Assembly (NCBI GenBank): GCA_046760225.1
Contig: JBHIDR010000007.1
Location: forward strand, 1-26,075
Direction: 5' to 3'
Length of the DNA: 26,075 nt
Origin: Candidatus Aenigmatarchaeota archaeon
GTDB taxonomy: Archaea; Aenigmatarchaeota; Aenigmatarchaeia; Aenigmatarchaeales; JACQIB01
The translations under genes and the position numbers were made by a program. Below the pieces are notes generated by a model. The model searched no databases, had not been told where the DNA came from, and saw nothing but the letters and a program-made list of their open reading frames with translations. Positions 4,237-6,172 of the stretch are shown here, piece by piece (positions within the stretch are counted from its first letter, which is position 1; the number at the start of each line of letters is the position of its first letter).

Positions 4237-4446
4237 ATGGGAAAGAAGAAAGGAAAGAAGGAAAGGAAGGGCAAGAAGCCAAGGAGCAAGAGCAAGCACA
4301 GGAAATCGCAGAAATGGAAGAAGTACAAAGACGGCAAGCCGCAGGGCAAGTTCTGTCCTAGATGCGGTCCCGGAGTCTTTGTTGGGGTGCACAAGGACCG
4401 TGTTGCATGTGGCAAGTGCGGATATGCAGAAGTGCAGAAGAAATAA
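4237..4446 (+). CDS. rps27ae: 30S ribosomal protein S27ae (eS31)
   Basis: [21 protein letters not shown] zinc ribbon. Confidence 0.95.
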
Positions 4447-4470
4447 AAGCCTGTGCGCTAATTCTAAAGC

Positions 4471-5461
4471 ATGATTTGTCTGGGCATCGAGAGTACTGCA
4501 CATATTTAGCAGAAATACTTTCGGTGTTGGAATAGTTTCGGATGAAGGAAAGATTTTAGCTAATGTTAAAGAGATTTATACACCGAAAAAAGGAGGAATC
4601 CATCCGCGCGAGGCTGCTGACCATCATGCTGATATTGTAGGTGAGGCAATTGCACAGGCAATAAAGAAAGCGGGGATTGAAATAAAAGATATAGATGTTG
4701 TTGCATTCTCCCAGGGGCCTGGCCTGCCTCCATGCCTGCGCATAGGCGCAACAGCTGCAAGGATTCTTGCATTTAAACTGGGAAAGCCATTGGTAGGTGT
4801 GAACCATCCAATTGCTCATATAGAGATAGGTAAACTTACGACCGGTGCAAAAGATCCGGTGATAACTTATGTTTCAGGAGGCAATTCGCAATTGCTTGCA
4901 TTCACAGAGGGAAGATATAGAATTTTTGGTGAAGTAATTGACGTTGCAATCGGTAACACAATTGACCAGTTCGCAAGGCAGGCGGAGCTCGGGCATCCAG
5001 GTGGACCAAAGGTCGAGAAGCTTGCAAAGAAAGGCAAGTGGGTTGAATTACCATACGTTGTCAAGGGAATGGACCTGAGCTTTTCAGGAATACTCACTGC
5101 TGCAGTTGACAAACTGAAAAAGGAAAAACTGGAGGATGTCTGCTTTTCCTTGCAGGAGACATGCTTTGCAATGCTCACAGAAGTAACTGAAAGGGCAATG
5201 GCGCATACAGATAAAAATGAAGTACTTCTTACAGGCGGTGTTGCTGCGAACAAGAGATTGCAGGAGATGCTTGAAATAATGTGCAGGGAAAGGGATGCAA
5301 AGTTCTATGTTGTGCCACGCGAATACTCAGGTGACAACGGTGTAATGATAGGCTGGACAGGTTTGCTGGCGTACAAGAGCGGACAGCGGCAGAAGCCTGA
5401 AGAGACAAGAATAGACCGCTACTGGAGAACTGATGATGTTGATGTTACTTGGATGGCTTGA
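4471..5461 (+). CDS. kae1: KEOPS N6-threonylcarbamoyltransferase Kae1; join(4471..4501,4515..5461), 325 aa after removing a 13-nt intron
   Basis: Exon 1 reads MICLGIESTA(H). The second frame continues TFGVGIV...GGIHPREAADHH...FSQGPGLPPCLRIG...VNHPIAHIE...YVSGGNSQ...DNGVMIG with no stops. Usual position after rps27ae. Confidence 0.93.
4502..4514 (+). other. Putative 13-nt bulge-helix-bulge (tRNA-type) mRNA intron in kae1 (ATATTTAGCAGAA)
   Basis: Outer helix 4483-4495/4516-4528 (13 bp incl. G-U), central helix CUGC 4496-4499/GCAG 4509-4512, 3-nt bulges AC^A (4500-4502) and AA^A (4513-4515). Excision restores the frame and the conserved motif. Confidence 0.85.
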
Positions 5462-5464
5462 TAT

Positions 5465-6151
5465 TCACTTCAAAACTCCCAGTTCCATCAGACTAACAAA
5501 ACCCCCGGAGCTAACAATTATGTGGTCAAGAAGCTCAATGCCCATTATCTTTCCTGCCTTAGCTATTTGTCTTGTTATTGCGATGTCTTCTTCACTGGGT
5601 GTTGGATTGCCTGAAGGATGATTGTGTACCAAAATTACTCCTGCAGCACTTTCAGCTAGGGCGGTCTTAAAAATCTCGCGCGGATGGACCAAATTCGCAT
5701 CTAAGCTACCGATTGAGATAGTTTCGCTCTTGATTAGCCTTTTTCTTGAATTAAGATAAAATCCTTTAAGATGTTCCTTTTTCAAATCACGCATCTTAAG
5801 GCCGCATAATCTCACAACATCTGCAGCGCTTTCAATCTTTAAGGACGGGCTGTCCGTATATGATGCTAACCGTTTCCCTAGTTCAAAAGCCGCGATAATC
5901 TGGCATGCCTTGGCTTCGCCAATCCCAAATATTCCTTTAAGTTCTGAAACAGTTATTTGAGAGAGCGCCCCAAGATTATATTTTTTAAGCAAACGCTTGG
6001 TCATGTCAAGAACATTTTCTTTATATGTTCCTTTGCTTATGACAATCGCCAGAAGTTCAGCATCGCTTAGCGCATTTGGTCCGCTATTTATTAACCGTTC
6101 CCTTGGTCTCTCAACAACTGGTAATTCTTTAATCTTGAGTTTGTATACCAT
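5465..6151 (-). CDS. radC: RadC-family JAB/MPN domain protein
   Basis: ERPRERL..GPNALSDAELLAI, GIGEAKA HhH, VHPREIF, HNHPSG..PS..D, LLDHII. Confidence 0.93.
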   Translation of the reverse strand: MVYKLKIKELPVVERPRERLINSGPNALSDAELLAIVISKGTYKENVLDMTKRLLKKYNLGALSQITVSELKGIFGIGEAKACQIIAAFELGKRLASYTDSPSLKIESAADVVRLCGLKMRDLKKEHLKGFYLNSRKRLIKSETISIGSLDANLVHPREIFKTALAESAAGVILVHNHPSGNPTPSEEDIAITRQIAKAGKIMGIELLDHIIVSSGGFVSLMELGVLK

Positions 6152-6172
6152 TAACACAACCTAGATAAAATG

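Follow-up and report, generated by a model that had tools for sequence, protein, structure and literature searches.

A bulge-helix-bulge (BHB) intron is found in the cbf5 pre-mRNA of Desulfurococcales and Sulfolobales, and the origin of such short introns, too short for a nuclease, has been left open (Yokobori 2009, PMC2738675). According to the same source, the BHB introns of archaeal rRNA encode LAGLIDADG enzymes such as I-DmoI. Another BHB intron is located in the 5′ UTR of the Haloferax gene HVO_1309, in a report according to which, as of 2020, the only BHB intron within an archaeal coding region was that of cbf5 (Schwarz 2020, PMC7714728). In phages, introns are described as spreading by collaborative, or trans, homing (Edgell 2010, PMC2988022). 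No further coding-region case appears in the searched portions of PMC12397907, PMC11291895, PMC12558985, and two 2026 preprints. One survey of 208 complete Nanobdellota genomes reports 1,214 “assembly frameshifts”; its searched portions consider other biological causes and do not mention introns (10.64898/2026.05.13.725050). The only precedent for an intron in kae1 found in the literature searched is that in cbf5, with supplements and most subscription journals outside the scope and a published list possible.

The window analyzed here, a 26,075-nucleotide stretch of a “Candidatus Aenigmatarchaeota” genome, contains a kae1 gene that is interrupted close to its 5′ end. Kae1 is near-universal and essential (PMC8565320), so an unspliced allele should not persist. 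Translation from the ATG at 4471 yields MICLGIESTAH-I-stop, and the conserved protein resumes in another frame at ACT 4517. Exon 1 (4471..4501, plus strand) consists of 10 codons and the C of a His codon; it matches the Kae1 N terminus of intronless relatives and, via a relative's protein, also aligns with solved Kae1 structures. It is followed by a predicted 13-nt intron of the BHB or bulge-helix-loop (BHL) type (4502..4514, plus strand) with an in-frame TAG at 4507..4509. Exon 2 (4515..5461, plus strand) begins with the two remaining bases of the His codon and continues for 314 codons to a TGA stop at 5459-5461. It matches the Pfam TsaD family with an E value of 1e-87, and its first ATG, GTG, or TTG start is found only at 4790. 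Directly upstream of kae1 is the gene for ribosomal protein S27ae (4237..4446, plus strand; Pfam Ribosomal_S27, E value of 1e-12), which leaves a spacer of 24 nt (4447-4470), too short for the endonuclease gene that precedes kae1 in some relatives. Downstream, a RadC-like JAB gene (5465-6157, minus strand) converges on kae1 and ends 3 nt past its stop codon; clustering of the flanks shows no such neighbor beside other kae1 loci.

The RNA of this region is predicted to fold into an exon-exon helix of 13 bp, including 4 G-U pairs, between 4483..4495 and 4516..4528, followed by a 4-bp central helix formed by CUGC (4496..4499) and GCAG (4509..4512). The central helix lies between the 3-nt bulges ACA (4500..4502) and AAA (4513..4515) at the exon-intron borders. 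EndA, in its known geometry, would cut each bulge behind its second base, at 4501/4502 and 4514/4515, and excision of 4502-4514 restores the His codon in CAT-ACT (His-Thr). All of these elements had been described in the first-pass annotation, made from the sequence without database searches, and the arrangement exceeds chance expectation. The fold has a z score of −3.22, with 1 of 200 shuffles equally good; synonymous recoding of the exons gives all 13 exon-helix pairs in 0.02% of draws, and shuffling of the insert gives the central helix in 0.3%. The same annotation also proposed a minimal U-A closure on the intron side, and here the outcome is divided: ViennaRNA assigns the U4503-A4508 pair a probability of about 0, but the corresponding pair is Watson-Crick in 91 of the 97 distinct junctions of relatives. 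Because the program leaves this single pair unformed, the free RNA resembles a bulge-helix-loop, in which the central pairs and the inner exon pairs keep probabilities of at least 0.9 up to 65°C. With one U-A pair on the intron side and 13 bp on the exon side, the motif can be classified as either the strict hBHBh′ or the relaxed (BHL) form. Rfam searches of the window give no match at the gathering score to a group I, group II, or any other catalogued RNA, and a ribozyme would not fit into 13 nt.

The genome containing this locus (G000) comprises 851,505 bases in 83 contigs and is 83% complete. Two separately assembled Logan contigs, from runs X3 (covering 4274-5257) and X4 (4477-5500), span the insert with 0 differences and 0 gaps; the two runs belong to one study, and X3 is possibly the source of this DNA. 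The runs that contain this DNA are hydrothermal-vent metagenomes; no RNA run is listed among them, a result that carries no information on expression. No joined, intron-free form of kae1 is seen among the DNA contigs covering the insert, which as contigs drop rare variants, and no second kae1 is found in the 83% of the genome represented by the assembly. In run X2, contigs of other organisms are nearly identical to the window over the junction and intron (4483-4536) and diverge outside, and a further contig carries a longer variant of the kae1 intron. ARAGORN detects few tRNAs in G000, many of them intron-bearing, including a tRNA-Tyr with an intron of ∼690 nt.

Alignment of kae1 from relatives, a check proposed in the first-pass annotation, reveals inserts of variable length at the same codon, with covarying pairs. 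When identical loci are counted once, genomes and metagenomes together contain 109 distinct kae1 intron loci with 97 distinct junctions and lengths of 12 to 46 nt. Among kae1 loci collected by protein search, 6 of 30 carry an insert at the same point. A DNA pattern that leaves the 3′ arm of the intron free, fixes the AGT codon, and limits the intron to 36 nt gives 40 matches in 185,579 genomes. Four of these are bacterial and lack the helix; the other 36 are kae1 genes with inserts of 12 to 30 nt, from records titled Aenigmatarchaeota, Woesearchaeota, Pacearchaeota, Nanoarchaeia, Iainarchaeum, and others. The full 4-bp central helix is found in 34 of the 36, and excision restores STAH-TF or STAH-TL in every one. 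A second pattern, which fixes part of the 3′ arm at the 3′ junction and sets no limit on intron length, has 117 matches in metagenomes, of which 79 are kae1; the remaining 38 were dropped as not kae1 by tblastn, although 4 of them resemble kae1 cut by contig ends. None of these 79 is a long, endonuclease-containing intron, and the longest kae1 intron found is 46 nt.

The pairing is maintained while the sequence changes. The numbers of Watson-Crick pairs in the 97 junctions, compared with the means of column shuffles, are 94 versus 54 for the central pair tested, 82 versus 63, 85 versus 77, and 87 versus 55 for the exon pairs, and 91 versus 33 and 71 versus 31 for the intron pairs. For each of these six pairs, the observed count was reached in at most 1 of 5,000 shuffles, which take no account of kinship; moreover, each of the two DNA patterns had some flanking positions fixed. 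Slid controls give nearly the same signal for exon pairs 4 and 5. The second central pair is U-A in 67 junctions, C-G in 22, and A-U in 5, and the intron-closing pair is A-U in 38, U-A in 27, and C-G in 25. Of the 13 exon-helix pairs, 12.4 are formed on average at intron loci versus 8.7 at 50 intronless loci. The 3′ bulge is AAA in 56 and AGA in 45 of 104 loci, counts in which the metagenome pattern partly fixed the bulge sequence. Identity of the flanks is high only inside the helix (0.88 and 0.87, versus 0.55 beyond) and therefore does not separate co-conversion from selection for pairing. In two loci (L102 and L150), 21-nt introns combine a TCG Ser codon and a weak exon helix next to the core with a 5-bp intron helix, which may represent an early stage or an alternative one.

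Two properties of the inserts bear on translation. In 76 of the 97 junctions, the first intron base is not A, so the His codon is encoded only after joining. In addition, an in-frame stop is present in 77 of 79 distinct introns, where 24.6 would be expected; the counts for the other two frames are 24 and 12. All three stop codons (TAA, TAG, and TGA) are used, at positions between codons 2 and 6, and each of the 23 introns whose length keeps the frame contains one; locus L245, which lies beyond the 79-intron set, has no in-frame stop. The lengths of 104 introns leave remainders of 0, 1, and 2 on division by 3 in 27, 55, and 22 cases, respectively.

The enzymes that would be needed for splicing are encoded in G000. 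It has two EndA paralogues, the subunits of a two-subunit enzyme (G000:C2:22790-23278 and C2:23810-24352), with 3iey_A as the best PDB match, as well as RtcB. The triad of EndA is Tyr-His-Lys (PMC6379350). The catalytic-type subunit (G000:C2:23810-24352; L071, with relatives L296-L308) keeps the Tyr and His that align with those of the solved enzymes and contains a Lys-rich loop like that of 3iey_A. According to the alignment-based mapping of the triad inferred here, its Lys position is occupied by Ala in 13 of 13 genomes from the order, and the Lys-rich loop that separates Tyr from His is invariant among them; with Ala in place of the usual Lys, catalysis must presumably be arranged differently. 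Efficient cutting of relaxed motifs is attributed only to (αβ)2 and ε2 enzymes (PMC6379350), and a two-subunit EndA fits that statement.

The kae1 insert is thus very likely an mRNA intron spliced by EndA and RtcB, by analogy with cbf5 and judging from the sequence comparisons. In the proposed pathway, kae1 would be transcribed with the insert, and the RNA would adopt the fold predicted by the folding program and by covariation, with the exon helix, the 4-bp helix, two 3-nt bulges, and a minimal closure on the intron side. The two-subunit EndA would cut after the second base of each bulge, a chemistry known for cbf5 and tRNA, and RtcB would ligate the exons as in cbf5, rebuilding the His codon and the frame. 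On unspliced RNA, translation would end at the conserved intron stop. The proposal of a very small BHB-type intron in kae1 mRNA, outside the Crenarchaeota, is accordingly among the ideas of the first-pass annotation that gain strong comparative support, from same-site inserts with compensatory changes in 109 loci, lengths in all three modulo-3 classes, the lack of a second kae1 in the 83%-complete genome, and the presence of EndA and RtcB. That the locus is a pseudogene or an assembly artefact, as might be suspected in a draft genome with 83% completeness, is scarcely credible: separately assembled contigs are identical over the insert, exon 2 is intact, kae1 is present in 286 of 301 genomes of the phylum, and inserts at this site, with compensatory changes, recur in 109 loci. 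A ribosome that skips the insert by bypass or frameshift, with no splicing, is very improbable as well. The stop lies close behind the upstream frame and the region forms a hairpin, both of which would suit such recoding, but insert lengths fall into all three modulo-3 classes, there are no matching take-off and landing codons, and a His codon made only by joining in 76 of 97 junctions excludes skipping there, as the unspliced RNA lacks it.

Clustering of the ORFs that flank kae1 identifies a single endonuclease family located beside intron loci only. Its members consist of 410 to 435 amino acid residues, are encoded on the kae1 strand, and end within ∼50 nt of the intron. They carry an N-terminal helix-turn-helix (HTH) domain and two LAGLIDADG motifs with the acidic residues kept; Pfam LAGLIDADG_3 is recognized in 9 of 13, and a structural model (pLDDT 87.6) has I-DmoI as its top fold match (E value of 1e-7). 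The gene lies directly upstream of kae1 at 23 of 102 intron loci, including 2 weak remnants and some loci found via the endonuclease search, versus 0 of 50 intronless loci; this scoring leaves out 17 intronless loci and 1 intron locus missed by the pattern. Among protein-searched loci alone, the ratio is 6 of 15 versus 0 of 50. A kinship-corrected test is underpowered and not significant (∼2 pairs agree, 0 disagree; p = 0.5). A search of 371 genomes of the phylum gives 10 matches to the family: the best five all precede an intron-bearing kae1, two precede EF-2 genes broken in the P loop, one precedes an intact EF-1α gene, and two are located elsewhere. In L291 and L293, more distant members of the family immediately precede EF-2 genes that are split at the HHGK motif. 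In four loci (L152, L053, L278, and L196), the endonuclease frame runs through exon 1 to the intron stop, which offers one origin for that stop. Decaying copies include an internally deleted gene (L064) and a C-terminal remnant (L015). A second LAGLIDADG-like family, also combining LAGLIDADG with HTH, is found upstream of kae1 in at least 3 other intron loci (L069:2-1276, L245, and L041).

The distribution of the intron was mapped on a tree of 88 Kae1 rows, built by a quick method from exon 2 with its first ten codons removed and without metagenome or pattern-missed loci. G000 Kae1 belongs to a clade of 56 rows, most of its titled members being Aenigmatarchaeota, and G000 is therefore presumed to belong to that phylum. 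Intron presence requires 21 changes on this tree, at least 11 of which are forced by well-supported branches; it is nonetheless clustered, as none of 500 shuffles is as low. Both states occur inside three genera (g1, g13, and g17). In the wider phylum the intron looks rarer: among the 150 of 301 matches listed, few are broken at the 5′ end, and 2 of those are introns. The Ser codon three positions before the site is TCN in 26 of 50 intronless genes versus AGT or GGT in 9 of 11 protein-searched intron genes, and independent pairs give 5 for this link and 0.2 against it (median p = 0.06). The upstream spacer of G000 is homologous to that of an intronless genome of the same genus (G001). Comparison of the endonuclease and Kae1 trees reveals several sister pairs in common but also a well-supported conflict, in which L042 and L146 have sister endonucleases and identical introns whereas their Kae1 proteins are not sisters, and a second, weaker one. 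A tree constrained to unite five same-phylum endonucleases is marginally rejected (p-AU = 0.042). Some record titles disagree with the Kae1 grouping: among L034, L042, L057, L064, and L038, those titled Methanosarcinales fall with Woesearchaeota-like Kae1 and one titled Baldrarchaeota falls with Aenigmatarchaeota-like Kae1, reflecting either mislabelled bins or transfer.

Excision of BHB-like inserts would also repair other broken core genes of G000. The genome contains eight more inserts of 22 to 38 nt, each with a 4-bp helix and two bulges and each breaking a conserved motif, in genes identified by Pfam as rtcB (two inserts), cbf5, aIF2γ, aIF5B, EF-2, porA, and top6B. An in-frame stop is present in 7 of the 8. 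In most of them the exon helix is weak and the intron helix is strong, the opposite of kae1, and strict genome-wide BHB scans did not detect inserts whose exon helix is weak. Under relaxed criteria there were 76 candidates, most of them located at gene boundaries, and only those that restore a recognizable motif were kept; a candidate at C48:3378 was rejected, as its halves are Alg14- and Alg13-like and probably represent two genes. A motif-directed search gave no match, and a motif search for uppS did not recover that gene. The gene of the splicing ligase RtcB (L073) contains a 30-nt insert that is in frame and has no stop (G000:C35:1544-1573) and a frameshifting 32-nt insert (1646-1677). Both recur in relatives, one or the other in each, with the sequence changed and the pairing kept; two relatives have a probable intein three codons beyond the second site. 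The P loop is interrupted in aIF2γ (G000:C3:19481-19511; L106), aIF5B (G000:C3:14523-14544; L282), and EF-2 (G000:C46:687-718; L283), and aIF2γ and EF-2 also contain, a few codons after the insert, an intein that includes a LAGLIDADG domain. The cbf5 insert (38 nt, G000:C20:7685-7722; L105) interrupts the codon for the catalytic Asp, exactly where the crenarchaeal intron is located, although this lineage is not crenarchaeal. The last two are a 30-nt insert near the start of top6B (G000:C2:16536-16565; L285) and a 31-nt insert in porA (G000:C39:3279-3309, minus strand; L284).

These data suggest, on balance, that the kae1 intron spread by collaborative homing, as in the phage systems. The intron would travel with the free-standing LAGLIDADG gene that immediately precedes the short exon 1. 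Intronless kae1 is probably cut by the endonuclease in the vicinity of the insertion site or at the site itself; the donor allele would be shielded by its intron, and the endonuclease gene may be lost later, as in G000. No homologue of the endonuclease is found in G000 and its spacer matches that of intronless G001, so that in G000 the intron either persisted after the loss of its endonuclease or came in alone. It is possible, if less probable, that the intron is real but old and was inherited vertically with many losses, the endonuclease being a late passenger or having another target. Such a history would suit the 79 of 102 intron loci without an endonuclease, the clustering of the intron on the tree, and the sister pairs common to the endonuclease and Kae1 trees, and the common spacer is as compatible with loss in G001 as with gain in G000. 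It is at odds with the different Ser codons of intron and intronless genes, the absence of the endonuclease upstream of all 50 intronless kae1 genes, and the marginal rejection of the constrained endonuclease tree. The first-pass annotation had offered a regulatory explanation, in which splicing couples the output of Kae1, and of Cbf5, to tRNA-processing capacity. In G000, kae1, cbf5, and rtcB, all RNA-processing genes, do carry inserts, and the conserved in-frame stop could act as a clean on/off switch; even so, retention of the intron as a regulator appears unlikely. Its presence varies inside genera g1, g13, and g17, similar inserts are found in porA and top6B as well as in EF-2, aIF2γ, and aIF5B, which leaves the coupling idea unsupported, and all inserts are located in conserved motifs, as homing elements would be. 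A mobile element associated with a neighboring homing endonuclease gene, one that is absent from the window, is better supported by these observations.

If collaborative homing is the correct reading, these loci might, with some caution, be taken to represent a class of mobile elements absent from the literature searched: a 12- to 46-nt host-spliced mRNA intron close to the 5′ end of an essential gene, paired with an upstream free-standing LAGLIDADG gene, in which the micro-intron outlasts its endonuclease and repeated invasions have left at least nine spliced protein-gene introns in G000. Two of those introns would then reside in the gene of the splicing ligase itself, mRNA splicing would be routine in these small archaea, and many core genes that look “frameshifted” in the assemblies would be intact, which is relevant to the annotation of apparent frameshifts in such genomes. 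With kae1 as a second gene family with a coding-region intron and over a hundred natural variants, the locus provides a minimal EndA substrate of 12 to 13 nt with a candidate mobilizing enzyme nearby. The prevalence of mRNA splicing in archaea and the means by which introns without an ORF are dispersed thereby become accessible to testing.

The kae1 intron resembles that of cbf5 in being short and ORF-less, in its position inside a conserved codon of a protein gene, in its BHB-like junction, and in a patchy distribution with losses; the cbf5 intron depends on EndA, and the kae1 intron is likened to it in this respect. Splicing of cbf5 has been demonstrated experimentally, whereas the kae1 intron is known here from DNA. 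It differs in the host gene, in its occurrence in records titled Aenigmatarchaeota, Woesearchaeota, Pacearchaeota, Nanoarchaeia, and Iainarchaeum, in a length of as little as 12 to 13 nt (16 to 44 nt in cbf5), and in the near-universal in-frame stop and the neighboring endonuclease gene. With the HVO_1309 intron it shares a predicted role as an EndA substrate in mRNA, but that intron, of 46 nt, lies in an untranslated region and breaks no reading frame, unlike the one in kae1. The rRNA introns of the I-DmoI type likewise combine a BHB intron with a two-motif LAGLIDADG endonuclease; in kae1 the endonuclease gene is located outside the intron, upstream of exon 1, and encodes a protein of ∼420 residues with an N-terminal HTH domain. 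The arrangement seen in some relatives, an endonuclease-free intron with a free-standing homing endonuclease adjoining the host gene, resembles that of phage collaborative homing. There the intron is a self-splicing group I element, whereas here it is a putatively host-spliced intron of 12 to 46 nt in cellular archaea, accompanied by a LAGLIDADG enzyme with a predicted cleavage activity.
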